This document shows, piece by piece, positions 3,788 to 38,935 of a stretch of DNA of 64,000 bases. The DNA comes from Casimicrobiaceae bacterium (GTDB lineage Bacteria; Pseudomonadota; Gammaproteobacteria; Burkholderiales; Casimicrobiaceae). Location of the stretch: positions 11,470-75,469 of the forward strand of contig DATJIS010000011.1 in NCBI GenBank assembly GCA_035493035.1, in the 5' to 3' direction. The stretch's first letter is position 1; each line of letters begins with the position of its first letter. Both the position numbers and the translations under genes were made by a program. Below the pieces are notes generated by a model, which searched no databases, had not been told where the DNA came from, and worked only from the letters and a program-made list of their open reading frames with translations.

Positions 3788-4885
3788 ATGATGCGCGCAT
3801 TCAGGGGGTTGGCCGCCGCGGCTTTCGGTTGTCTTGCGCTGCCCGCGGCGGCGTCGTTCCACACGTGGGTGATCGAGCAGCTGTACTCGAACGCCGACGG
3901 CACGGTCCAGTACGTGATGCTCCACGAGTCGGCAGGCTTCGACGGGGAGAGCTTTCTCAACGGCTACACGCTGACCAGCACGCACGCCGGCGTGACCAAG
4001 ACGTTCACGTTCACCAAGGCGCTGCCCGGCACGGCGACCGCGGGCAGGCGCTTCCTCATCGCGACGCAGGGCTACGCGGATCTCGCGAGCAAATCGGCAA
4101 CGCCCGGCATGGGCATGTCGCCGCCGCTCTACTACTACCCGCCGCCCCCGCCGCCGCCCCCGCCGCAGCCACCCGTCGTGGCGAACGGGCAGCCCGACTT
4201 CGTGATGCCCAACGGTTTCCTGGCGACCGACGGCGGCACGCTCAACTACGCGGGCGTGGATCAGATGACGTACGCCGCGCTGCCCACCGACGGCCTGAAT
4301 GCGCTGAACCGCGCCGGCACGACGGGGCCGGCAACGCCGATGAACTTCGCCGGCATCAGCACGGCGCTGTCCGCGACGCCCGTGACCTTGGTCGAGTTCT
4401 ACAATGCGGCGCTCGATCACTATTTCGTGAGCGCCCTGCAGCCCGACATCGATGCGCTCGACACGGGGCGCATCGCGGGGTGGATGCGTACCGGCCTGTC
4501 GTTCAAGGTGTTTCCCACGGCCGCCGCCGGCAGCGCCGGCGTGAATGGCGTGTGCCGCTTCCTCATTCCGCCCGAGCACGGCGATTCCCACTTCTTCTCC
4601 GCGTCGCCGGACGAATGCAATGCCGTCCTCGCGAAGATCGGCGTCGACCCGAACTACAGCGGCTACGTGGAGGAAACGGCCAGCGCGTTCTTCATCGCGC
4701 TGCCCGACACGACGACCGGCGCGTGTCCCGCCGGCACGACGCCCGTGTATCGGCTCTTCAACAACCGGACTGACGCGAATCACCGCTATACGACGGACGC
4801 GACGGTGAAGGCGGCGATGATCGCGCGCGGCTACATCGCCGAAGGCTACGGGCCCGACGCCACCATCATGTGCGCACCGGCCTGA
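3788..4885 (+). CDS. Secreted protein: LTD-like N-domain, poly-proline linker, DUF5648-like C-terminal domain
   Basis: AAGGAG lies 6 nt upstream of the ATG at 3788. Signal peptide MMRAFRGLAAAAFGCLALPAAAS. A PPPPPPPPPPQPP run is present. The C-terminal ~160 aa are clearly paralogous to the C-terminus of CDS 30670..32202 (FYNAALDHYF / YYNAGFDHYF; CPAGTTPVYRLFN / CPAGTLPVYRLYN; NHRYTTD / NHRFTTD). Confidence 0.75.
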   Translation: MMRAFRGLAAAAFGCLALPAAASFHTWVIEQLYSNADGTVQYVMLHESAGFDGESFLNGYTLTSTHAGVTKTFTFTKALPGTATAGRRFLIATQGYADLASKSATPGMGMSPPLYYYPPPPPPPPPQPPVVANGQPDFVMPNGFLATDGGTLNYAGVDQMTYAALPTDGLNALNRAGTTGPATPMNFAGISTALSATPVTLVEFYNAALDHYFVSALQPDIDALDTGRIAGWMRTGLSFKVFPTAAAGSAGVNGVCRFLIPPEHGDSHFFSASPDECNAVLAKIGVDPNYSGYVEETASAFFIALPDTTTGACPAGTTPVYRLFNNRTDANHRYTTDATVKAAMIARGYIAEGYGPDATIMCAPA

Positions 4886-28459: not shown

Positions 28460-30295
28460 CTAGGCGCGACGAAACCGATAGATCGCGAGCTCGCCGCGCG
28501 CATTGGGCGCGAAGTTCACCGGCCGCGCGCGCGACAGCACGACACGATCGACGATGTCGAGGCCGCGCGCGGCGAGGAACGCGTCGAAGTCGGCCACGGT
28601 GCAAAGATGGATGTTCGGCGTGTCGTACCACTGGTACGGCAGCGACTTGGACACGGGCATGCGCCCGCGCAGAATCTGCAATCGGTGCGACCAGTGGCCG
28701 AAGTTCGGAAACGTGATGATCGCCTCGCGCCCGACGCGCAGCATCTCGGCGACGATCTCCTCGATATGTCGCATCGCCTGCAGCGTCTGCGACAGGATCA
28801 CGCAATCGAAGGCGCCGTCGTCGAAGCCCGCGAGACCGCGCTCGAGATCGCTCTGGATCACGTCCACGCCGTTGCGCAGACTGGCGAGCAGGCCGGCTTC
28901 GGCGATCTCGATGCCGTAGCCCGTCGCGCCGCGCGTGCGGCGCAGGTGCGCGAGGAGCGTGCCGTCGCCGCAGCCGAGGTCGAGCACCCGCGCGCCGTGC
29001 CCGATCCAGCCCGCGATGACCGCGTAATCGGCGCGGAGCCCTTCGTCGGCTGGCTGCGGTCCCTCGGAAACCCGGGGCACGGCATGGAGGGTCGTGACGG
29101 GCGTGCGCGGCTCCGGCGGTGACGCCCGCTGCTGCGCGATGCGCTCGAAGTAGCTGCGCACCACCGCGTGGTACTGCGGGTTGTCGAGGAGGAACGCGTC
29201 GTGGCCGTGCGGCGCGACGATCTCGGCGTACGAGACCTCGTGACGGCGGCGCACGAGCGCGCGCACGATCTCGCGCGAGCGCGCCACCGGGAACCGCCAA
29301 TCGGTGGTGAATCCCACCACGAGAAATTGCGAGCGCGCGGGCGCCAGCGCCTGCGCGAGATCGCCGCCGGTCTTCGACGCCGGATCGAAGTAGTCGAGCG
29401 CCTTGGTGATGCGCAGGTACGTGTTCGCGTCGTAGTAGTCCGCGAACTTCTCGCCCTGGTAGCGCAGGTACGACTCGATCTGGAACTCGGGCGCGAAGGA
29501 GAAGCGAAGCCCTTCGCGCAGCTGCCGTCCGAAGCGCGTCTCCATCTGCTCGTCGGACAGGTACGTGATGTGGCCGATCATGCGCGCCACGCGAAGCCCG
29601 CGGCGCGGCTTCGTGCCGTGCGCGTAGAAATGACCGTCGAAGAACTCGGGGTCGGTCATGATGGCCTGGCGTGCGACCTCGTTGAACGCGATGTTCTCCG
29701 CCGAAAGGTTGGGCGCCGCCGCGATCACGAGCGCGTGCCGGATCCGCTCGGGAAAGCGCACCGCCCAGGCGAGCGCCTGCATGCCGCCCAGGCTTCCGCC
29801 CATCACGGCAGCCCATTGCCGGATCCCGAGCCGATCCGCGAGCCGGGCCTGCGCATCGACCCAGTCCTCGACGGTCACGATGGGAAAGTCGCTGCCCCAC
29901 GGCTCTCCGGTGTCGGGATTGATGGACTGCGGCCCCGTGGAGCCGAAGCAGCTTCCGATGTTGTTGACGCCGACGACGTGGAAGCGGTTGGTATCGAGCG
30001 GCTTGCCCGGCCCCACCATGTTGTCCCACCAGCCGACGTTGTCCGGCTCCCCCGCGTACACGCCGGCCACGTGATGCGACGCGTTGAGCGCATGGCAGAT
30101 CAGCACCGCATTGCTGGCGTCCGCGTTGAGCGTGCCGTAGGACTCGTACGCCACGTCGTACGCGGGCAGCGCGCGCCCGCAGGCGAGCGGAAGCGGCTCG
30201 GCGAAGTGCGCGATGCGCGGCTCGACCACGCCGACCGACGTCTCGGGTGCGTGCGCGGTGTCGGCACCGCCGGTGGTAGCTGCAAACGACGCCAT
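28460..30295 (-). CDS. metX-metW: Fused homoserine O-acyltransferase MetX / methionine biosynthesis protein MetW
   Basis: A single 611-aa ORF. Residues 1 to ~387 are MetX (alpha/beta hydrolase, [10 protein letters not shown] nucleophile elbow, GHDAFLLD). A ~32-aa Pro-rich linker follows. The last 192 aa are MetW ([32 protein letters not shown]...). There is no stop codon or frame change between the two parts. Confidence 0.85.
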
Positions 30296-30491: not shown

Positions 30492-30669
30492 CTCCGCTCG
30501 CGATATCGCTCGACGGAGCGCCTCCGCCGGCCCCGCAAGGCCGCTTGCCGACAAACGGCCGCGTTTCGCATTGCCCCGGCCCATGACACTGGAATAATAT
30601 GCCGGCGTCATGGCGCGATCCGTGAGGCGTCGCTGCCCTGCCGAACAACAACGACTCCTGGAGTGGTCC

Positions 30670-32202
30670 ATGGCAGTGAGGCGGCTCGTCTTCGGCGTCG
30701 TTTGCATGCTCGCTGCCGCCTTCGCGGCCACCGCGGCGCACGCGCAAAACGCGACGCGCGGATCGCAGATCTATGGCCAGTCGCCCTGGGGGTGCGCCGA
30801 CTGCCATGGCAGCAACCCGCGCAACGATCCCGAGAGCGGGCAACCGTCCGGCGGCGTGAAGTCGGGAACGGTGTGGCAGAACATCCTCCTCGGCATCAAC
30901 GGTCCGATCGATGGCCACACGGACATGACGGACCTGCTGAAGCCGTTCTACGACCAGCAGCTCATCAGCGACGCCGATCTGCAGGACATCTCGGCCTATC
31001 TGCAGCAGGTGTTCAACGGCACGGGCGGCGGCGGCGGCGGTGGAAATCCCGGAACGATCTCGGCCGCGGCGTCGCTCGGCTTCGGAACCGTCAACACCGG
31101 GGCGAGCAACCTGCAAAGCCTCACCGTCACGGTGAGCTCGGCCGCCGTGACCTTCGCTTCGGTGAGCATCTCCGGCGCGCACTCCGGCGACTTCAGCGTC
31201 TCGAGCAATGGCTGCAACGGCGCCGTGAACCCGGGGTCCTGCCAGATCGGGGTGTCCTTCCAGCCGTCGGCCGCGGGCACCCGCAACGCCACGCTGACCA
31301 TCGCGAGCAACGCCACGAATGGCGCGACCAAGACCGTGGCACTCAATGGAACAGGCAACGTCGTGTCGACCGGCACCGGGCAGCTCAGCGCGCCGGCGAC
31401 CGTCACGCTTCCCGATACGGCGGTGGGCGCACAGAGCGCGGCGTCGACCGTGACGGTCAGGAACGTCGGCTCGGCGGCCGTCAACGTCGCGAGCGTCACG
31501 TCGAGCAGCGCGGAGTTCCTCTTGACCTCGAACGCGTGCAGCGGGGCAACCGTGCAACCCGGCGCGGCGTGCCAGTTCAGCGTCGCCTTCAGGCCGTCGA
31601 CCGCCGGCGCGCGCAACGCAACGCTGTCGATCTCGAGCAGCGCCACCGGCAGTCCGCAGGCCGTCACCGCGCTGGGCAACGGAACCGCTACCGGCGGTGG
31701 CGGCACCAAGGTGCTCGCCGTCGAGTATTACAACGCCGGCTTCGATCACTACTTCATCACCGCGATTCCCGACGAGATCACCAAGCTCGACAACGGCACG
31801 TTCGTCGGCTGGCAGCGCACGGGATTCACCTTCAACGTCTATGCGGCGACGAATCCGCCGGCGGGCAGCTCGACGGTGCACCGGTTCTTCAGCACCAGCT
31901 TCGCGCCCAAGAGCTCGCATTTCTACACGGCGAATCCGGCGGAGTTCAACACCGTGCTCGCGAATCCGAACTGGCAATACGAGGGCGACGTGTTCAACGT
32001 GCCGATGCCGAGCGCGGACGGCTCGTGTCCCGCGGGGACGCTGCCGGTCTATCGCCTGTACAACAACGGCCAGGGCGGCGCACCCAACCACCGCTTCACG
32101 ACGGACCTCACGACGCGCGACGGCATGCTGAGCCGCCCGCCCGACAAGGCGTGGGTTGCCGAGGGCGCGGGAATCGGCGTGGGAATGTGCGCCCCGCAGT
32201 GA
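30670..32202 (+). CDS. Secreted multidomain protein: c-type cytochrome domain, Gly linker, two Ig-like (choice-of-anchor-D/HYDIN-like) repeats, DUF5648-like C-terminal domain
   Basis: GGAG RBS upstream of the ATG at 30670. Signal peptide MAVRRLVFGVVCMLAAAFAATAAHA. CADCH heme-binding motif at 30793..30807. GGGGGGG linker. Two ~100-aa internal repeats (...SGDFSVSSNGCNGAVNPGSCQIGVSFQPSAAGTRNATLTI... / ...SAEFLLTSNACSGATVQPGAACQFSVAFRPSTAGARNATLSI...). The C-terminus is paralogous to CDS 3788..4885. Confidence 0.8.
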   Translation: MAVRRLVFGVVCMLAAAFAATAAHAQNATRGSQIYGQSPWGCADCHGSNPRNDPESGQPSGGVKSGTVWQNILLGINGPIDGHTDMTDLLKPFYDQQLISDADLQDISAYLQQVFNGTGGGGGGGNPGTISAAASLGFGTVNTGASNLQSLTVTVSSAAVTFASVSISGAHSGDFSVSSNGCNGAVNPGSCQIGVSFQPSAAGTRNATLTIASNATNGATKTVALNGTGNVVSTGTGQLSAPATVTLPDTAVGAQSAASTVTVRNVGSAAVNVASVTSSSAEFLLTSNACSGATVQPGAACQFSVAFRPSTAGARNATLSISSSATGSPQAVTALGNGTATGGGGTKVLAVEYYNAGFDHYFITAIPDEITKLDNGTFVGWQRTGFTFNVYAATNPPAGSSTVHRFFSTSFAPKSSHFYTANPAEFNTVLANPNWQYEGDVFNVPMPSADGSCPAGTLPVYRLYNNGQGGAPNHRFTTDLTTRDGMLSRPPDKAWVAEGAGIGVGMCAPQ

Positions 32203-32206
32203 CGGA

Positions 32207-33112
32207 TCAGGACGCCTGAGGCGTTTCGTCGCTCACGATTCCGCCGTCGCGATCGACCAGCAGGAAGCGATAGCGCTGCTCGCGCAGGAACGTGGCCGCA
32301 TCCGGCCGCAGCATCGCGATGGTCGCGAGGCTGCCCGCGACGATGCACAGCGGGGCCACGACGCTCACCGATTGCCAGCGATCCATCGGCCAGCCGGTGC
32401 GCGGATCGAGGATGTGGCAATAGCGCCGGCCCTGGATCTCGAAGTAGCGCTCGTAATCGCCGCTCGTGGCGACGGCCGCGTCGCGCAGCTCGACCGCGCC
32501 GATCACGCCACCCGGTTTGCGCGGATGAACGATGCCGACGCGCCACGGTGCACCGGTCGGCTGGCTGCCGAGCGCGCGCACGTCGCCGGCGAGGTTCACG
32601 AGCGCGTTGGCGACGCCCGCATCGGCGAGCACGGTCGCGGCCCGATCCGCCGCGTATTCCTTGCCGATCCCGCCGAAGTCGATCTCCATGCCGGCCTCGG
32701 GCAGGCGTATGGACGTTTCGCTCCATTCGACGCGCGCCCAGCCGATGAGCCGGCGCAGCGCGTCGACCTCGCTTGCCTGCGGCAACCGCGGCGGATCGCG
32801 TCGAAAATCCCAGGCGCGCCTCAGCACACCCGACGTGACGTCGAACGCGGCGTCGCTCAGCCGATGGCACTCGTCGGCGTAGCGCAGCAGCGCGGCCGTT
32901 TCCGTGTCGATGGGCACCGCGGCGCGGCCGGCTGCGCGATTGATCCTGCTCGTGATCGCGTCGTCGCGATAGCGCGAGTACTTCGCCTCGATGCGCTGCA
33001 CCTCGGCGGTCGCGGCGCGCGCAGCAGCGGCGGCCGTCGACGCGTCGGCGGCATCGATGGTGAGCTCGTGCTCCGCCGCCATCGCGCGGAACGTGAAGCG
33101 GAACAGCGCCAC
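32207..33112 (-). CDS. apbE: FAD:protein FMN transferase (ApbE family)
   Basis: The C-terminal part of ORF 32207..34225. Contains FDVTSG, IDFGGIGKEYAADRA, VNLAGDV, ATSGDYERYF and HILDPRTGWP. I chose the GTG at 33112, 2 nt after the upstream stop. The ATG at 33082 is an alternative start. No signal peptide is evident. Confidence 0.85.
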   Translation of the reverse strand: MALFRFTFRAMAAEHELTIDAADASTAAAAARAATAEVQRIEAKYSRYRDDAITSRINRAAGRAAVPIDTETAALLRYADECHRLSDAAFDVTSGVLRRAWDFRRDPPRLPQASEVDALRRLIGWARVEWSETSIRLPEAGMEIDFGGIGKEYAADRAATVLADAGVANALVNLAGDVRALGSQPTGAPWRVGIVHPRKPGGVIGAVELRDAAVATSGDYERYFEIQGRRYCHILDPRTGWPMDRWQSVSVVAPLCIVAGSLATIAMLRPDAATFLREQRYRFLLVDRDGGIVSDETPQAS

Positions 33113-33114
33113 CG

Positions 33115-34251
33115 CTAGAAGGTTTTCTGGACGCCTGCCTCGATCCAGCGTGCGGAGAAATCGAGCAGCCCTTCGCTGCCCGCGCCGAACAGATGCCAGC
33201 TCGACCTCTGGCGATAGAAGCTTACCGCGACGTCCGCGCTCCAGCCATCGGCGAACTGCTTGTCGAGCCGCAGGCTCGGCGTGAACGCGCCGAACGCCGA
33301 CAGGCGCGTGTCGGCGGTGTACGGCTGGCCCGGCCGCAATCCGTTGCCGAGCGGCGGGCCGTAGAAGAAGAACGCGTTGTCCTGCGTGATGTAGCGCAGC
33401 CCCGGCGTCAGAGTGAATCCCTGCGTCAACGGCTGCGCCCATTCGACGTCGAGCGTGTGCGAATCGGCGTGCCAGGAATCGTTGATGTACCGGTAGGACA
33501 GACGCAGCGTGGCGTCGAACTTCGGCACGTACTGGTTGTAGCGGGTGAGCCACGCGAACACGTTGCGCGTGTCGGGACGGCGGTCGAGCGGCTTGTACGG
33601 ATCGTTGTAGTAGCCGCGTCCGTCGGAGTACGTGAGGTTGGACTCGATGATCGCGCCCGCGTTGAGCACCTGCGTGACGCCGACCAGGAAGTCGTAGGTC
33701 TCGCGGTGCTTGCCTTCGGCGGCGCCGTTGGTCGGGTTGACGTCGTCGTGCGCGCCGCCGACGCCGAACGCCCACGTGCGGTTCTTGTCCGCCGTCCAGG
33801 TCCGGAGGTCCATGGAAAGCGCGCGCGACAGGTAGTCGCGCTCGACGGAATACGCGCCGCCGACGCCGATCGCGAAGCGGTCGTAGTACTTCGTGACCTT
33901 GAGGTCGCCGGCCTTGCGGTAATCGGTCACGCCGAGGCCCGAGGCGCCCGACAAGGTGTTGAAGTACAGCACCGACGCGCCCGACATGGCGTCGTAGACG
34001 AGCGAGCCCTCGACCGACAGCGTGTCGGTGATGGGCTTCAGCACGTAGAGCGACGGGCTTCGAACCGTCATGCGGTCCGCGCCGGGCTGCCAATCGCGGT
34101 AGTCGAAATAGCGCAGCGCGACGACCCCCTGGTCCGGCGCCGTCTGCGCGTGCGCCGCGGCGGGGAGGATTCCGGGCAACGCGAGCGCCGCGGCGAGCAG
34201 CGCGTTGCCGCGTCGCTCGCCGCAACGCTCGTCAGTTGCAGCCACAACCAC
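33115..34251 (-). CDS. DUF3570-like secreted, probable outer-membrane beta-barrel protein
   Basis: 378 aa, GTG start. Signal peptide ...RRGNALLAAALALPGILPAAAHA. Alternating beta-strand-like composition with a C-terminal aromatic residue (…GVQKTF). Contains DAMSGAS and TLSGAS motifs. Confidence 0.75.
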   Translation of the reverse strand: MVVAATDERCGERRGNALLAAALALPGILPAAAHAQTAPDQGVVALRYFDYRDWQPGADRMTVRSPSLYVLKPITDTLSVEGSLVYDAMSGASVLYFNTLSGASGLGVTDYRKAGDLKVTKYYDRFAIGVGGAYSVERDYLSRALSMDLRTWTADKNRTWAFGVGGAHDDVNPTNGAAEGKHRETYDFLVGVTQVLNAGAIIESNLTYSDGRGYYNDPYKPLDRRPDTRNVFAWLTRYNQYVPKFDATLRLSYRYINDSWHADSHTLDVEWAQPLTQGFTLTPGLRYITQDNAFFFYGPPLGNGLRPGQPYTADTRLSAFGAFTPSLRLDKQFADGWSADVAVSFYRQRSSWHLFGAGSEGLLDFSARWIEAGVQKTF

Positions 34252-34450
34252 CTCCGCCGACGCCGTAACCGCCGCCGGCGGCTTCCTTGCTCTGGTAGAT
34301 GTGCTGCGTCGCCTTGGCCGTCAACGGATCGCGATCGAGCTGCATCTGGGGCTTGGCGAGGTCGCCCTTTTCCCAAGGCTGCGGCGGCGCGAACGACGCG
34401 CAGCCCGCGCACGCAAGGACGACGAGGAGGACGCAGGCGGACCGGCGCAT
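34232..34450 (-). CDS. DUF4266 lipoprotein
   Basis: 72 aa. Lipobox VLACAGC. Contains PWEKGDLAKPQM...HIYQSKEAAGGGYGVGGGGCGCN, the DUF4266 pattern as I recall it, including the terminal GGCGCN. It overlaps the next gene by 20 nt. Confidence 0.75.
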   Translation of the reverse strand: MRRSACVLLVVLACAGCASFAPPQPWEKGDLAKPQMQLDRDPLTAKATQHIYQSKEAAGGGYGVGGGGCGCN

Positions 34451-34461
34451 CGACGCTCGCC

Positions 34462-34968
34462 CTACCGCGCCGCGAGCAGTTCGCGAATGCGGCCCTCGAC
34501 GGCCGCCTTGTCTTCGTCGCGGAAGCCCTGCTCCACCATCACCACGCGGCCGCTGCGATCGACGAGGTACGAGCTCGGCATGCCTTTCACCGCGTACGCC
34601 GACGGCGTCGCGCCGGCCGCATCGTAGACGACGGTGAAGCGCGCCGGCGTGGCGGCGAGGAACCGCTGCGCATCCTCGGCCTTCTTGTCGACGTTGACCG
34701 CGACGATGGTGAAGCCGTCGCGCCCGTAGCGGGCGGCGAGCTCGTTCATCCAGGGAAAGGACCGCTTGCACGGCCCGCACCACGACGCCCAAAAATCCAC
34801 GTACACGACCTGCCCGCGCAGGCGCTCGAGCGCAATGGTTTCGCCTTGCGAGGTCGCGAGCGAGAACGGCGGCGCAGCGTCTCCGATGCCGACGGCAACC
34901 GCCGAACCGGTGTGAAGCATCGCGGCCAGCGCGACGCTCGCCCAGCGAAGGAGTACGGATCGTTTCAT
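34462..34968 (-). CDS. TlpA-like periplasmic thiol:disulfide oxidoreductase
   Basis: The last 168 aa of ORF 34462..36519. Signal peptide MKRSVLLRWASVALAAML. Active site FWASWCGPCK (CxxC). Redoxin fold. Confidence 0.85.
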   Translation of the reverse strand: MKRSVLLRWASVALAAMLHTGSAVAVGIGDAAPPFSLATSQGETIALERLRGQVVYVDFWASWCGPCKRSFPWMNELAARYGRDGFTIVAVNVDKKAEDAQRFLAATPARFTVVYDAAGATPSAYAVKGMPSSYLVDRSGRVVMVEQGFRDEDKAAVEGRIRELLAAR

Positions 34969-35099
34969 GACATTGGCATTATTGCAGGCTCGCGGACGGC
35001 GACTCAACACCGGCCGACGACTGGCAGACGCACGGCCGTACGCGGTTGCGCAAACAGCAGTGTCGCGCGGCCATTCCGGACGCTTCGTCCCGGCCGCGC

Positions 35100-36839
35100 C
35101 TAGGCGTTCAGCTTCTCGAGGAGCGCGGCGATGCGCGCGGGATCGTCGGCGCGCTTCAGGCGGTCGACGATCGGCACGATCTGCGACAGATCGGTGTGCA
35201 GCACGCGCTGCTTGACGTTCAGCAAATGCGCGGGATGCATCGAGAAATCGCGCAGGCCGAGGCCGAGGAGGAGGCGCGTCATCGGAAGCTCCCCGGCCAT
35301 CTCGCCGCACACCGCGATCGGGATGCTCGCCTTGTTCGCGGTGCCGATCGCCATCGCGAGCAGCTTCACCACCGCGGGATGCATCGGATCGTAGAGATGC
35401 GACACGCTGTCGTCGGCGCGATCCACCGCGAGGGTGTACTGGATGAGGTCGTTCGTGCCGATCGACATGAAATCGAGCTTGCGCAGGAACGAGCCCATGG
35501 CGATGACCGCCGCCGGAATCTCGATCATGCCGCCGAGCTGGACGTCGGGCGCGAACGGGATGTCCTGCTCGCGCAGCTGCTCCTTCGCCTGCTCGAGCAG
35601 CGCCATGGTCTGGTCGACCTCGCCGACCGAGGCGAGCATCGGAATCAGGATGCGCACCTTGCCGTAGTGCGACGCGCGCAGGATCGCCCGGAGCTGCGTG
35701 AGGAAGAGCCGCGGCTCGGCCAGGCAGAACCGAACCGCGCGCAAGCCGAGCGCGGGATTGGGCGCGACGCGCGCGAGCCCGTCGAGTCCTTCCTTGCTCT
35801 TGTCCGCGCCCAGGTCGAACGTGCGGATGGTGACCGGCTTGCCGCCCATGCCCTCGGCCACCTGCCGATAAGCCTCGAACTGCTCGTCCTCGGTCGGCAG
35901 ACCCTCGCGGTTGAGGAACAGGAACTCCGAACGGAAAAGTCCCACGCCGCCGGCGCCGTTCTCGATCGCCTGAGCGAGGTCGTCGGGCAGCTCGATGTTC
36001 GCGTTGAGCTCCACGTGCACGCCGTCGATCGTCTGCGCGGGCTTCGAGCGCAGGCGCTTCAGCTTCTGCCGGGCGAGGTCGAGCTCGTTCTGCTTGAGCC
36101 GGTACTCCTGGAGCACCGCACGGTCGGGGTTGACGATGACGACGTGATGGTTGCCGTCGACGATGAGCAGCTCGCCATCGCGTATCAGCGCCCGCGCGTT
36201 GTGCGTCGCGACCACCGCGGGAACGTTGAGACCGCGCGCCACGATGGCCGTATGCGACGTGACGCCGCCGAGATCGGTGAGGAAGGCGGCGAAGTGATGA
36301 TGCTTGAACTGGATCACGTCGGCGGGTGACAGGTCGTGCGCGACGACGATCGTCTGTTCTTCCGCCGACGCGGCGCGCAGGGCACCCGGGCGGCCCATGA
36401 GGCGCTTCAGCACGCGCTCGCCGACCTGGAACACGTCCGCCTTCCGCTCGCGAAGATACGCGTCCTCGATCTGCTCGAATTGCTCGACCAGCACGCCGAG
36501 CTGCTGCGTGAGCGCCCACTCGGCATTGCAGCGCTGCTCGGCGATGATCCGCTTCGGCACCTCGGACAGCGTCGGATCGTTGAGGATCATCCAGTGCACG
36601 TCGAGGAATGCGCCGAACTCGCCCGGTACGTCACCCGACGTCATCGCGCGATGCAATGCCTCGAGCTCGAGCTGAACGTCCTTCACGGCCGCGTCGAAGC
36701 GGTCGATCTCGGCCGGCACCTGCTTCGCGGGGACGTTGTAGTGCGCGACCTCGAGCATCGCGTGCGAGACGAGCTGGGCCCGTCCGATCGCGATGCCGCC
36801 CGAAACGCCGATGCCGTGCAGCGCGAAGCTGACGTTCAC
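35100..36839 (-). CDS. ptsI: Phosphoenolpyruvate-protein phosphotransferase (PTS Enzyme I)
   Basis: 579 aa. Reads GIGVSGGIAIGRA, GGVTSHTAIVARGLNVPAV (active-site His), and MIEIPAA...FMSIGTNDLIQY. GGAGG RBS. Confidence 0.95.
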   Translation of the reverse strand: MNVSFALHGIGVSGGIAIGRAQLVSHAMLEVAHYNVPAKQVPAEIDRFDAAVKDVQLELEALHRAMTSGDVPGEFGAFLDVHWMILNDPTLSEVPKRIIAEQRCNAEWALTQQLGVLVEQFEQIEDAYLRERKADVFQVGERVLKRLMGRPGALRAASAEEQTIVVAHDLSPADVIQFKHHHFAAFLTDLGGVTSHTAIVARGLNVPAVVATHNARALIRDGELLIVDGNHHVVIVNPDRAVLQEYRLKQNELDLARQKLKRLRSKPAQTIDGVHVELNANIELPDDLAQAIENGAGGVGLFRSEFLFLNREGLPTEDEQFEAYRQVAEGMGGKPVTIRTFDLGADKSKEGLDGLARVAPNPALGLRAVRFCLAEPRLFLTQLRAILRASHYGKVRILIPMLASVGEVDQTMALLEQAKEQLREQDIPFAPDVQLGGMIEIPAAVIAMGSFLRKLDFMSIGTNDLIQYTLAVDRADDSVSHLYDPMHPAVVKLLAMAIGTANKASIPIAVCGEMAGELPMTRLLLGLGLRDFSMHPAHLLNVKQRVLHTDLSQIVPIVDRLKRADDPARIAALLEKLNA

Positions 36840-36855: not shown

Positions 36856-37125
36856 TCAGGCGCGCTGCTCGAGACCCTGGTCGAACAACTGGACGAGCGC
36901 GCTCATTGCCGCCTGCTCGTCCGGGCCGTCGACTTCCAGCCGCACGGTGGAGCCCACCGCGGCTGCAAGCATCATGACAGCCACGATGCTGCGCGCGCTC
37001 GCGCGCCGTCCCGCGACGACGAGGCACACGTTGGCACGGAAATGCGACGCCAGCGCGACAATGCGTGCGCAGGCGCGCGCGTGAAGACCGTGTGGATTGG
37101 TGACCGGCACTTCGCGAATCTGCAT
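36856..37125 (-). CDS. HPr-family phosphocarrier protein (second, diverged copy)
   Basis: 89 aa. GLHARACA carries the His15 equivalent. ARSIVAVMML carries the Ser46 equivalent. By eye it is roughly 45% identical to the upstream HPr. Confidence 0.85.
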   Translation of the reverse strand: MQIREVPVTNPHGLHARACARIVALASHFRANVCLVVAGRRASARSIVAVMMLAAAVGSTVRLEVDGPDEQAAMSALVQLFDQGLEQRA

Positions 37126-37254: not shown

Positions 37255-37524
37255 TCACTGTCCTTCGCCGAAGCAGTCGCGGATGAGCGCGCACAGCGCG
37301 TCCATCGCCTGCTGCTCGTCGGGACCTTCGATCTCCAGCGTGATCTTCGATCCCTTGCCGGCCGCGAGCATCATCACGCCCATGATGCTCTTTGCGTTCA
37401 CCTTGCGGCCGTTGCGCCCGATCTGCACCTCGCTCTGAAAGCGCGCTGCAAGCTGGGTGAGCTTCGCCGACGCGCGTGCGTGAAGCCCGAGCTTGTTGAC
37501 GATCTCAACCTCGCGTTGCTGCAT
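37255..37524 (-). CDS. ptsH: HPr phosphocarrier protein
   Basis: 89 aa. Reads MQQREVEIVNKLGLHARASAKL...VNAKSIMGVMMLAAGKGS. Confidence 0.9.
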   Translation of the reverse strand: MQQREVEIVNKLGLHARASAKLTQLAARFQSEVQIGRNGRKVNAKSIMGVMMLAAGKGSKITLEIEGPDEQQAMDALCALIRDCFGEGQ

Positions 37525-37918
37525 AGACGGGATCGATCTCCACGTGCAGCACGCCCTCGCACCCGCCGGAGATCGCCTTCTTCACCAGCATGTCGAGGCC
37601 CTTGTTGCGATAGGTGAACGCGCGAACGAGCATCGGCAGGTTCACGCCCGATACGATCTCCACGTGACCGGGTTGCGCGAGCTTGATCGCGAGATTGCAC
37701 GGCGTCGCGCCGTACAGGTCGGAGAAAACCAGCACGCCTTCGCCGGTGTCGAGCGATGCGATCGCGGTGCGCGCCCGCGGCAGCATGGCGGTGGGATCGT
37801 CGGTGGCCGCGACGTCGAGCACCTCGAACTGCGCCGGACGTGCGCCCAGGACATGCGTCACGGCCTCGACCAGGCTGTCGCCGAGCGAGCCGTGCGCGAT
37901 GATGAGGACGCCGATCAT
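37505..37918 (-). CDS. PTS EIIA component, mannose/fructose family
   Basis: Internal ATG of ORF 37505..37945. MIGVLIIAHGSLGDSL carries the active-site His. It sits in the EIIA(Man)-HPr-EI order typical of betaproteobacteria. Confidence 0.85.
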   Translation of the reverse strand: MIGVLIIAHGSLGDSLVEAVTHVLGARPAQFEVLDVAATDDPTAMLPRARTAIASLDTGEGVLVFSDLYGATPCNLAIKLAQPGHVEIVSGVNLPMLVRAFTYRNKGLDMLVKKAISGGCEGVLHVEIDPVYAATRG

Positions 37919-37990
37919 GGGATCTCGCGCGCTGGATGTTAGCACGCACTTACGCGATTCGCTCGCGGTGACGCGGACCGTTGCGCAAGC

Positions 37991-38935
37991 CTAGCCGTCG
38001 CAGGCGGCGACCAGCGCATCCGCGAAAAGCCCCGGGACGTCGAAGCCCGATTGCTGCGAGATCTCGACGAAGCACGTCGGGCTGGTGACGTTCACTTCCG
38101 TGAGATAAGGGCCGATCACGTCGATTCCAACCACGATGAGGCCGTCGCGCCACAGCGTGGGCGCCATCGCCTCGCCGATTTCGCGATCGCGCGCCGTCAG
38201 CGGACGCGCCACCCCGCGACCGCCGGCGGCGAGATTGCCGCGGGTCTCGCCCGGCTTGGGAATGCGCGCCAGGCAATACGGCACGACCTCGCCTGCGATC
38301 ACGAGGATGCGCTTGTCACCGTCGACGATCTCGGGAATGTACTTCTGCGCCATGACGGTGCGCGAGCCGTACAGCGACACCGCTTCGAGAATCGCGTTGC
38401 GATTGGGATCGTCGTGGCGCACGCGAAAGATCGATGCGCCGCCCATGCCGTCGAGGGGCTTGACGACGACGTCGCGATGCTCGTCGATGAACGCGCCGAG
38501 CCGGGCCATGTCGCGCGTGGCGAGCGTGGTGGTGATCAGATGCTGGAACTTCGCGATCGCCATCTTCTCGTTGTAGTCGCGTATCGCGCGCGGCTTGTTG
38601 AAGACGCGGGCGCCCTGCGCCTCCGCGGCCTCGAGGAGATACGTCGAGTACACGTACTCCATGTCGAACGGCGGGTCCTTGCGCATCACCACCGCGGCGA
38701 AGTCGCGCAGCGGCCGCTCGTGCGCATCGCCTTCGCGATACCAGTCGTGATCGTCGTCGAGGAGGTCGAGCGGGCGGCTGCGTGCGTACGTCACGCCCTC
38801 GCGCCAATAGAGATCCGACTGCGTCATGGCGTGAATGCGATGGCCGCGCCCGGCGAGCGCACGCATCATCGAGATGCTCGTGTCCTTGTACGCCTTCAGG
38901 AACGGCAGCGGGTCGAGGATGAACGCGAAATCCAT
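37991..38935 (-). CDS. gshB: Glutathione synthetase (ATP-grasp)
   Basis: 314 aa. Reads MDFAFILDPLPFLKAYKDTSISMM..., VVKPLDGMGGASIF and GDKRILVIAG. Confidence 0.9.
   Translation of the reverse strand: MDFAFILDPLPFLKAYKDTSISMMRALAGRGHRIHAMTQSDLYWREGVTYARSRPLDLLDDDHDWYREGDAHERPLRDFAAVVMRKDPPFDMEYVYSTYLLEAAEAQGARVFNKPRAIRDYNEKMAIAKFQHLITTTLATRDMARLGAFIDEHRDVVVKPLDGMGGASIFRVRHDDPNRNAILEAVSLYGSRTVMAQKYIPEIVDGDKRILVIAGEVVPYCLARIPKPGETRGNLAAGGRGVARPLTARDREIGEAMAPTLWRDGLIVVGIDVIGPYLTEVNVTSPTCFVEISQQSGFDVPGLFADALVAACDG

Follow-up and report, generated by a model that had tools for sequence, protein, structure and literature searches.

A DUF3570 flavinylation cluster in a Casimicrobiaceae contig: predicted outer-membrane barrel, leaderless ApbE, and a recurrent cytochrome c-Ig neighbor

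We analyzed a 64-kb stretch of DNA (~69% G+C; hereafter the window, meaning the whole stretch) from contig DATJIS010000011.1 of a Casimicrobiaceae bacterium, with attention to four tightly coupled open reading frames (ORFs) on its minus strand that encode, in this order, a TlpA-like thioredoxin, a DUF4266 lipoprotein, a DUF3570 protein, and the flavin transferase ApbE (Table 1). The cluster is the DUF3570 flavinylation system described by Méheust et al. 2021 (eLife 10:e66878, PMC8238504), in the form without an adjacent DsbD gene. To that description we add three features left untreated in the literature that we consulted: the barrel fold predicted for DUF3570, a subfamily of leaderless ApbE proteins with Gly at the position of Asp285, and a cytochrome c protein with immunoglobulin (Ig)-like domains that recurs as a candidate partner. 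Taken together, the evidence leads us to lean slightly toward the view that the four genes form one operon, and that their products make up an electron relay at the outer membrane, running from thiols through a lipoprotein with a Cys-Gly-Cys (CGC) tail to covalently bound flavin mononucleotide (FMN), and perhaps on to heme.

All four proteins have strong Pfam scores (Redoxin, 1e-24; DUF4266, PF14086, 1.7e-23; DUF3570, PF12094, 4.4e-59; ApbE, PF02424, 2.3e-79), which bear out the families named in an earlier note on this DNA that had been made from the sequence alone. Méheust et al. (2021, PMC8238504) reported that apbE genes lacking a known substrate adjoin DUF3570, identified two conserved [S/T]GA[S/T] motifs in DUF3570, and showed with the Chlorobium luteolum pair, expressed in E. 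coli, that ApbE attaches flavin to its cognate DUF3570, the labeling being abolished only when both serines were mutated. The clusters in that paper (227 with DsbD and 316 without) combine apbE and DUF3570 genes with those for a thioredoxin-like protein and for DUF4266, whose C-terminal CxC was noted, and the authors put forward a hybrid thioredoxin/flavin system for electron transfer, its function being unknown. The window cluster has the same ApbE, two-motif DUF3570, thioredoxin-like protein, and CxC-ending DUF4266, and differs in that the thioredoxin-like gene of the paper is PF13899, whereas the window protein is Redoxin/AhpC-TSA. The earlier note had seen no ApbE client nearby and had regarded the DUF families as having no assigned function. 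Neither statement can be kept: DUF3570 lies directly upstream of apbE, a homologue has been shown experimentally to be an ApbE substrate, and both motifs are present in the window protein. The note had also warned that a published description would remove the novelty of the four-gene cluster, and with the 2021 paper that novelty is indeed largely gone.

The two motifs of the window DUF3570 center on S90-G-A-S93 and S101-G-A-S104, and motif 1 also fits the longer consensus D-x-x-[S/T]-G-A-[S/T]. Among 40 close homologues, both motifs are invariant or nearly invariant; motif 1 is invariant, and so are residues G102, A103, and S104 of motif 2. Family-wide, in homologues at 29-76% identity, motif 1 is still nearly invariant; most distant homologues retain motif 2, which a subset has lost. 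The protein starts with a signal peptide that ends approximately between AHA and Q (residue 35), within a segment conserved in the family alignments (ALLAAALALPG...AxA, followed by Q). We considered Tat export, raised by the string ERRGN in the window protein, and rejected it, the twin arginine not being conserved and low-GC homologues having Lys-rich n-regions. A flavinylation motif also occurs outside DUF3570 in one locus: a 306-aa protein encoded just 5′ of the thioredoxin gene of a distant cluster (L090:6312-7232), otherwise unrelated and with no Pfam match on record, contains DAVSGASP, a perfect ApbE motif.

The closest relatives of the window are metagenome-assembled genomes of Casimicrobiaceae (Burkholderiales), with protein identity up to 88-92%. 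A genome scan for the close set (alignment A3) gave at least 591 loci, and the best 80, with two loci obtained by direct look-up, make up the 82 close loci used below. Because the loci it returned were all from relatives within the Burkholderiales, Casimicrobiaceae included, a second scan was run on metagenomes, seeded with an alignment of the distant clade; it gave at least 581 loci, 80 of which are the distant loci. Nearly all of the 82 close loci have the order thioredoxin-DUF4266-DUF3570-ApbE, many of them embedded in the same ptsI ... metXW synteny. The four genes also co-occur in the distant metagenome loci, in two orders, with the thioredoxin gene either first or after apbE. The four genes are together in nearly all of the ~170 related loci (30-90% identity) that are long enough to show them, so the cluster is not a chance arrangement, and the co-occurrence elsewhere that the earlier note had called for is found. 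Single distant representatives keep the same core, except a stand-alone DUF3570 and a short contig (L085) that shows no apbE. The stand-alone gene (L083:6490-7623) encodes a distant, low-GC DUF3570 (~30% identity), and no DUF4266, thioredoxin, or ApbE lies within 6-8 kb of it. The DUF3570 system is widespread: the family comprises 1509 clusters at 50% identity (E-values up to 1e-3), and each of the two scans gave more than 580 loci.

The window ApbE (267 bits against a Pfam cut-off of 25.6) matches 13 solved ApbE structures in alignments to the PDB. It has no signal peptide or lipobox; its start is 10 residues before the core Met of the F-R-A-M segment, and its alignment to the E. coli ApbE model runs from residue 9 and model position 40 onward. 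The start lies at most 12 residues before the core in all 82 close loci, in ~70 distant metagenome loci, and in the single distant loci that bear apbE, and in many homologous loci in-frame stops occur 2-10 codons 5′ of it. Given a start so close to the core and stops just upstream, a signal peptide is excluded for the DUF3570-linked ApbE. We also considered a hidden leader from an upstream start overlapping DUF3570, and rejected it: in the window that frame encodes a hydrophilic stretch, and in many loci stops close it. The window ApbE, lacking a signal peptide, is presumably cytoplasmic. The earlier note was right about its identity, and its portrayal of the enzyme as one acting on extracytoplasmic proteins sits poorly with the absent export signal.

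A 2025 review gives Ser241, His257, and Asp285 (Vibrio cholerae numbering; A-D-x-L-x-T) as conserved residues of the ApbE catalytic center. The window ApbE retains the Ser (Ser217, in TSGDYER) and the His (His233, in YCHILDP), and in the PDB alignments Gly260 takes the place of Asp285. Gly occupies this position in 143 out of 143 DUF3570-linked ApbEs (loci L001-L172). The same review notes that cytosolic ApbEs exist, and cites them with cytosolic clients. The cytosolic ApbE of Klebsiella pneumoniae and the ApbE domains of trypanosomatid fumarate reductases likewise have no signal peptide and are cytoplasmic, where flavin adenine dinucleotide (FAD) is available. Their clients are soluble cytoplasmic enzymes, whereas the client in the window is a signal-peptide protein modeled as an outer-membrane barrel; furthermore, the conserved Asp285 is replaced in the window ApbE, unlike in these cases. 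The C. luteolum DUF3570 made without its signal peptide was insoluble, yet it was flavinylated in the E. coli cytoplasm (PMC8238504), so ApbE is able to act on a non-native substrate. The simplest reading would be that flavin is attached in the cytoplasm to the unfolded DUF3570 precursor, before Sec export.

We modeled DUF3570 with AlphaFold2 (AF2). The model has 16 antiparallel strands, with a predicted local distance difference test score (pLDDT) of 78 and a predicted template modeling score (pTM) of 0.77; one side has turns of at most five residues, and the opposite side has all of the long loops, which reach 29 residues. The top Foldseek matches in the PDB are all outer-membrane barrels at ~10% identity, and they include FadL, PelB, OmpG, OccK/OprD, and a polysaccharide outer-membrane secretin (4y25). 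The C-terminal residue, in the family alignments as in the window protein, is Phe (...KTF), an aromatic end of the β-signal kind. DUF3570 is hence best described as a predicted 16-stranded outer-membrane β-barrel; the single experimental hint at its location is the insolubility of the C. luteolum protein made without a signal peptide. In the model, motif 1 begins where strand 3 ends, and both motifs run into the β3-β4 loop. The long-loop face holds this loop, the other long loops, and most of the invariant residues, the latter in four clusters (D50-P56, S135-Y140, G211-R229, and R286-G321). With the usual topology of outer-membrane proteins, both termini periplasmic, the face with the flavin loop would be external or lumen-lining. 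Four homologues (P0171, P0256, P0245, and P0182) have Pro/Thr-rich low-complexity inserts of 50-150 residues, in some cases of at least 100, that separate the two flavinylation motifs, and the tolerance of such inserts suggests that the flavin loop is exposed.

The lipobox Cys and the terminal VGGGGCGCN of DUF4266 are invariant among 29 homologues (alignment A4); the position after the lipobox Cys is Ala or Gly, and a PPQPWEKG segment is conserved. In the AF2 model of DUF4266 alone (pLDDT 58.6), there is no fold past the signal helix and the mature part is disordered, which fits a peptide that might fold on, or thread into, a partner. An N-terminus of the form V/M-A-A-T-D/E, recurrent in DUF3570 homologues, proved to be the out-of-frame reading of the DUF4266 GGCGCN-stop codons (window 34232-34251). 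Since these invariant codons are read in the other frame, the 20-nt overlap of the two genes is kept family-wide. Natural DUF4266-DUF3570 fusions were sought among the homologues and none was found; long apparent fusions were rejected as frameshift artifacts or loop insertions.

The thioredoxin-like protein matches Redoxin (1e-24), AhpC-TSA (5e-22), and Thioredoxin (1e-12) in Pfam, and its residues 1-25, read directly from the sequence, form a signal-like hydrophobic segment. By its thioredoxin fold, CxxC site, and export signal, it appears to be a TlpA/ResA-like periplasmic thioredoxin. No equivalog-level NCBIfam match was reached (ResA, 106.9 bits with a cut-off of 170; TlpA, 63.7 with a cut-off of 230; DsbE, 61.2 with a cut-off of 123). 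DsbD adjoins the cluster in ~18 of the 80 distant loci. A DsbD/CcdA turned up neither in the 64-kb window nor in any of the 82 close loci (in the window, DsbD was sought by tblastn with the protein of locus L087 as query), so the window locus belongs to the published class without DsbD. The earlier note had suggested that the cluster is a self-contained thiol/flavin module. The thiol/flavin idea agrees with that of Méheust et al. (2021); self-containment is not supported, since DsbD, which usually donates electrons to such thioredoxins, is absent from the window and adjacent in some of the distant loci.

The earlier note had pointed to a secreted cytochrome fusion protein whose gene, on the opposite strand, ends 4 nt from the apbE stop. 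This gene is indeed convergent with apbE at that distance, and the observation gained relevance when a cytochrome c-Ig protein was found again beside distant clusters. Pfam and NCBIfam assign to the window protein a cytochrome c domain with a CxxCH motif, DUF5648, and a pair of Ig-like domains (ASH / choice-of-anchor D); it also has a signal peptide. In the distant loci, a cytochrome c-Ig gene is directly 5′ of the thioredoxin gene on the same strand (L147, L149, L153, L156, L166, L169, and L170, with partial copies in L158 and L172), and its product has a signal peptide, a cytochrome c domain, ~5 choice-of-anchor-D Ig repeats, and a JDVT-CTERM sorting signal. In both of the proteins scanned (L147 and L153), this signal exceeds the NCBIfam cut-off. 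The window protein is collinear with these proteins over the cytochrome and Ig parts (E = 9e-19). In L092, a PKD-PKD-cytochrome c lipoprotein occupies the same position upstream of the thioredoxin gene. Across lineages, the cytochrome c-Ig protein adjoins the cluster in three different arrangements, and we estimate that it is present in about one-third of the distant loci with enough upstream DNA. We regard the convergent protein of the window as a candidate accessory partner of the cluster.

Haft 2023 (bioRxiv 10.1101/2023.06.07.544157) placed JDVT-CTERM proteins beside DUF4266/DUF3570/TlpA genes and proposed a functional partnership; in the part of the preprint available to us, the partner is not described as a cytochrome c-Ig repeat protein. 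The distant-locus protein 5′ of the thioredoxin gene has the same JDVT-CTERM signal, whereas the window cytochrome protein ends in DUF5648 and is convergent rather than codirectional. The JDVT-CTERM signature of the distant proteins, GGGGC(S/T), resembles the DUF4266 end GGGGCGCN; it was seen at L147:2792-4912 and L153:2871-5033, and in L166, L156, L149, L169, and L170. If cleavage occurs after the Cys, as Haft 2023 proposes, the cytochrome c-Ig protein and DUF4266 would both end in Gly4-Cys. In two loci (L166:2922-5696 and L156:2979-5702), the cytochrome c-Ig-JDVT-CTERM frame continues stop-free into the TlpA-like thioredoxin, which may reflect either a genuine fusion or loss of the stop codon. 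Of the 82 close loci, 39 have the DUF5648 part. A second DUF5648 protein is encoded in the window (3869-4885, plus strand), and its end (...IMCAPA) is like that of the cytochrome fusion (...GMCAPQ). Related loci keep this C-terminal Cys in their DUF5648 tails, and it probably belongs to the domain rather than to a redox tail.

What the computations show is the pair of motifs, a barrel fold for DUF3570, an ApbE without a leader, a lipoprotein ending in CGC, the joint occurrence of the genes, and the recurrent cytochrome neighbor. Where in the cell the parts act, in which order and direction electrons move, flavinylation before export, and the physiological substrate are inferences. In the relay that we slightly favor, the leaderless ApbE would use FAD to put FMN on Ser93 and Ser104 of DUF3570, probably on the unfolded precursor before it enters Sec. 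After export, DUF3570 would assemble into a 16-stranded outer-membrane barrel that carries both flavins on the long β3-β4 loop, at its conserved long-loop face. DUF4266 would be a small, disordered outer-membrane lipoprotein whose invariant Gly4-Cys-Gly-Cys-Asn tail may serve as a mobile dithiol/disulfide shuttle. A DsbD/CcdA encoded elsewhere would reduce the periplasmic TlpA-like thioredoxin, which in turn would reduce the CGC tail of DUF4266; the CGC dithiol would reduce the two FMNs of DUF3570 in a two-electron step, and FMN would pass single electrons to an acceptor, for which the neighboring secreted cytochrome c-Ig protein would be the best candidate.

Flavins couple two-electron thiol chemistry to one-electron heme chemistry, for example in the path from Mia40 (CPC) through Erv1 (FAD) to cytochrome c, and in Erv2p a flexible C-terminal Cys-Gly-Cys tail shuttles the disulfide to the flavin site. 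The proposed relay would resemble Mia40-Erv1/ALR-cytochrome c and Erv2p in its sequence of a flexible CxC shuttle, a flavin taking two electrons, and a cytochrome c taking single electrons. It differs from them in that there is no kinship of sequence or fold, that the FMN would be bound by a phosphoester to a barrel loop, and that the compartment and the likely direction are different.

A more specific and quite tentative form of this idea treats DUF3570 as a "flavoporin". Its FMNs would be installed in the cytoplasm by the leaderless ApbE without Asp285 and, with the CGC lipoprotein threading into the barrel, it might form a nonheme outer-membrane conduit that turns electrons from DsbD/thioredoxin thiols into one-electron reduction of the surface cytochrome c-Ig protein or of external acceptors. 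By function, the analogy would be to the porin-cytochrome conduits MtrCAB and PioAB, in which a redox cofactor in or on a barrel and a lipoprotein or surface cytochrome link the periplasm with the exterior. The MtrAB type needs a multiheme cytochrome in a homologous barrel of at least 20 strands, whereas there is no multiheme protein in the window, and its barrel has 16 modeled strands and an unrelated sequence; MtrB was absent from the 50 listed Foldseek matches of DUF3570. Furthermore, in comparison with MtrCAB, the barrel of the window system would itself carry covalent FMN rather than heme, and electron input would be thiol-based.

Several results weigh against the relay. The flavin loop of DUF3570 itself is modeled at a pLDDT below 50, and the barrel is oriented by the convention of placing long loops outside the cell. 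The supply of reductant is not encoded nearby, DsbD/CcdA being missing from the window and from the close loci. The loss of Asp285 might mean that the DUF3570-linked ApbE works differently, and we found no direct precedent in the literature for Sec export of a chain carrying FMN. Only 14 of the 82 close loci have the homologous cytochrome c domain, and ~10 of the 80 distant loci the cytochrome c-Ig protein; being in the minority in both sets, the cytochrome neighbor cannot be obligatory, and in the close clade its place beside the cluster may be plain synteny (ptsI ... metXW).

The low confidence of the flavin loop, which leaves its position open, and a cytochrome partner that is not universal also speak for a reductase facing the periplasm. 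The barrel would then be an anchor or scaffold with the flavin loop toward the periplasm or the lumen, the periplasmic substrate reduced by the thioredoxin, CGC tail, and FMN would be, for example, ferric iron or siderophores for assimilation, and no electrons would cross the outer membrane. Iron assimilation is hinted at by the link to VIT1 in Méheust et al. 2021 (PMC8238504). However, the flavin sites and most of the conserved residues are on the long-loop face, which is external or lumenal in known outer-membrane proteins, the long Pro-rich inserts suggest exposure of the loop, and there is no iron-transport gene beside the cluster in the window. We consider this arrangement unlikely.

The flavinylated barrel and the CGC lipoprotein might instead oxidize the thioredoxin and, by way of it, envelope protein thiols, with electrons going to cytochrome c or oxygen and disulfide formation as the purpose. 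The components would follow the same logic as Mia40-Erv1-cytochrome c, with a CxC shuttle, a flavin, and a cytochrome c neighbor, and an oxidative role would accord with the lack of an adjacent reductant supply by DsbD in the window and in the 82 close loci. However, the extra redox gene that adjoins the cluster in the ~18 distant loci is DsbD, an importer of reductant, and thioredoxins of the TlpA/ResA/DsbE type are reductases in known systems. The path from thiol through flavin to heme is common to both directions, and sequence alone separates them poorly. We hold the oxidative direction to be improbable. That the genes are independent neighbors, with ApbE serving Nqr/Rnf/NosR elsewhere, the thioredoxin serving cytochrome c maturation (where TlpA/ResA/DsbE-like proteins often occur, and a cytochrome gene is adjacent), and the DUF proteins unrelated to either, is near refuted by the ~170 loci that keep the four genes in two orders with overlapping or abutting frames, by an ApbE whose lack of a signal peptide would keep it from periplasmic clients, and by the cognate ApbE-DUF3570 pair shown to work together (Méheust et al. 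2021).

Since this type of cluster was published in 2021, together with the central biochemical finding that DUF3570 serves as the ApbE substrate, the observation as first stated carries little weight. The text of PMC8238504 contains neither "beta-barrel" nor "cytosolic ApbE", uses "outer membrane" only for TonB receptors, and has no mention that we could find of a cytochrome c-Ig neighbor of the DUF3570 cluster. A later paper of the same group (mSystems 2024, PMC11334425) names "the outer membrane" as one place where flavinylated domains occur; no outer-membrane substrate is discussed in it, and DUF3570 is never named. Three questions are raised. One is whether flavin is attached before Sec export and then carried to the outer membrane, which, if true, would solve the problem of FAD supply outside the cytoplasm. 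Another is whether an outer-membrane barrel can itself carry a redox cofactor. The third is whether there is a thiol-driven, flavin-mediated electron route to the cell surface, parallel to the multiheme conduits.

The spacings along the cluster match the earlier note exactly: a gap of 11 nt between the thioredoxin and DUF4266 genes, an overlap of 20 nt between DUF4266 and DUF3570, and a gap of 2 nt between DUF3570 and apbE, all on the same strand. No convincing terminator was found within the four-gene cluster. A consensus scan gave one sigma-70-like site 5′ of the thioredoxin gene (0.3 expected), which stops ~10 nt short of the ATG and may count as weak promoter evidence.

Table 1 Features of the cluster and of its convergent neighbor, in window coordinates
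Feature	Position (nt)	Strand	Details
TlpA-like thioredoxin	34968-34462	-	168 aa, ATG start
WC64GPC67 active site	34779-34768	-	Within the TlpA/ResA-like thioredoxin
DUF4266 lipoprotein	34450-34232	-	72 aa, C-terminal end GGGGCGCN
Lipobox Cys17, Ala at +2	34402-34400	-	DUF4266
C-terminus V-G-G-G-G-C69-G-C71-N72	34246-34235	-	DUF4266; invariant in homologues
DUF3570	34251-33115	-	378 aa, GTG start
Flavinylation motif 1, D87-A-M-S-G-A-S93	33973..33993	-	Predicted FMN attachment at Ser93
Flavinylation motif 2, N98-T-L-S-G-A-S104	33940..33960	-	Predicted FMN attachment at Ser104
ApbE	33112-32207	-	301 aa, GTG start
Sigma-70-like promoter match	34978..35007	-	TTGAGT-18-AATAAT with TG; consensus scan
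Secreted cytochrome c-Ig-DUF5648 protein	30610-32202	+	Likely start 30670 or 30676
Cytochrome c motif C62-A-D-C-H66	30793-30807	+	In the convergent neighbor

Two further arrangements around the cluster are shared with related loci. Upstream of the thioredoxin gene, two tandem HPr genes (36856-37125 and 37255-37524, minus strand) lie between the genes for enzyme I (35100-36839) and an EIIA-Man-type protein (37505-37945) of the phosphotransferase system (PTS), followed by glutathione synthetase (37991-38935), and this layout of tandem HPr, PTS, and glutathione synthetase genes is repeated in locus L001. On the other side of the cluster, MetX (homoserine O-succinyl/acetyltransferase) and MetW form a single reading frame of 611 aa (28460-30295, minus strand), and the fused MetX-MetW ORF is likewise called as one gene in L001 and L002.

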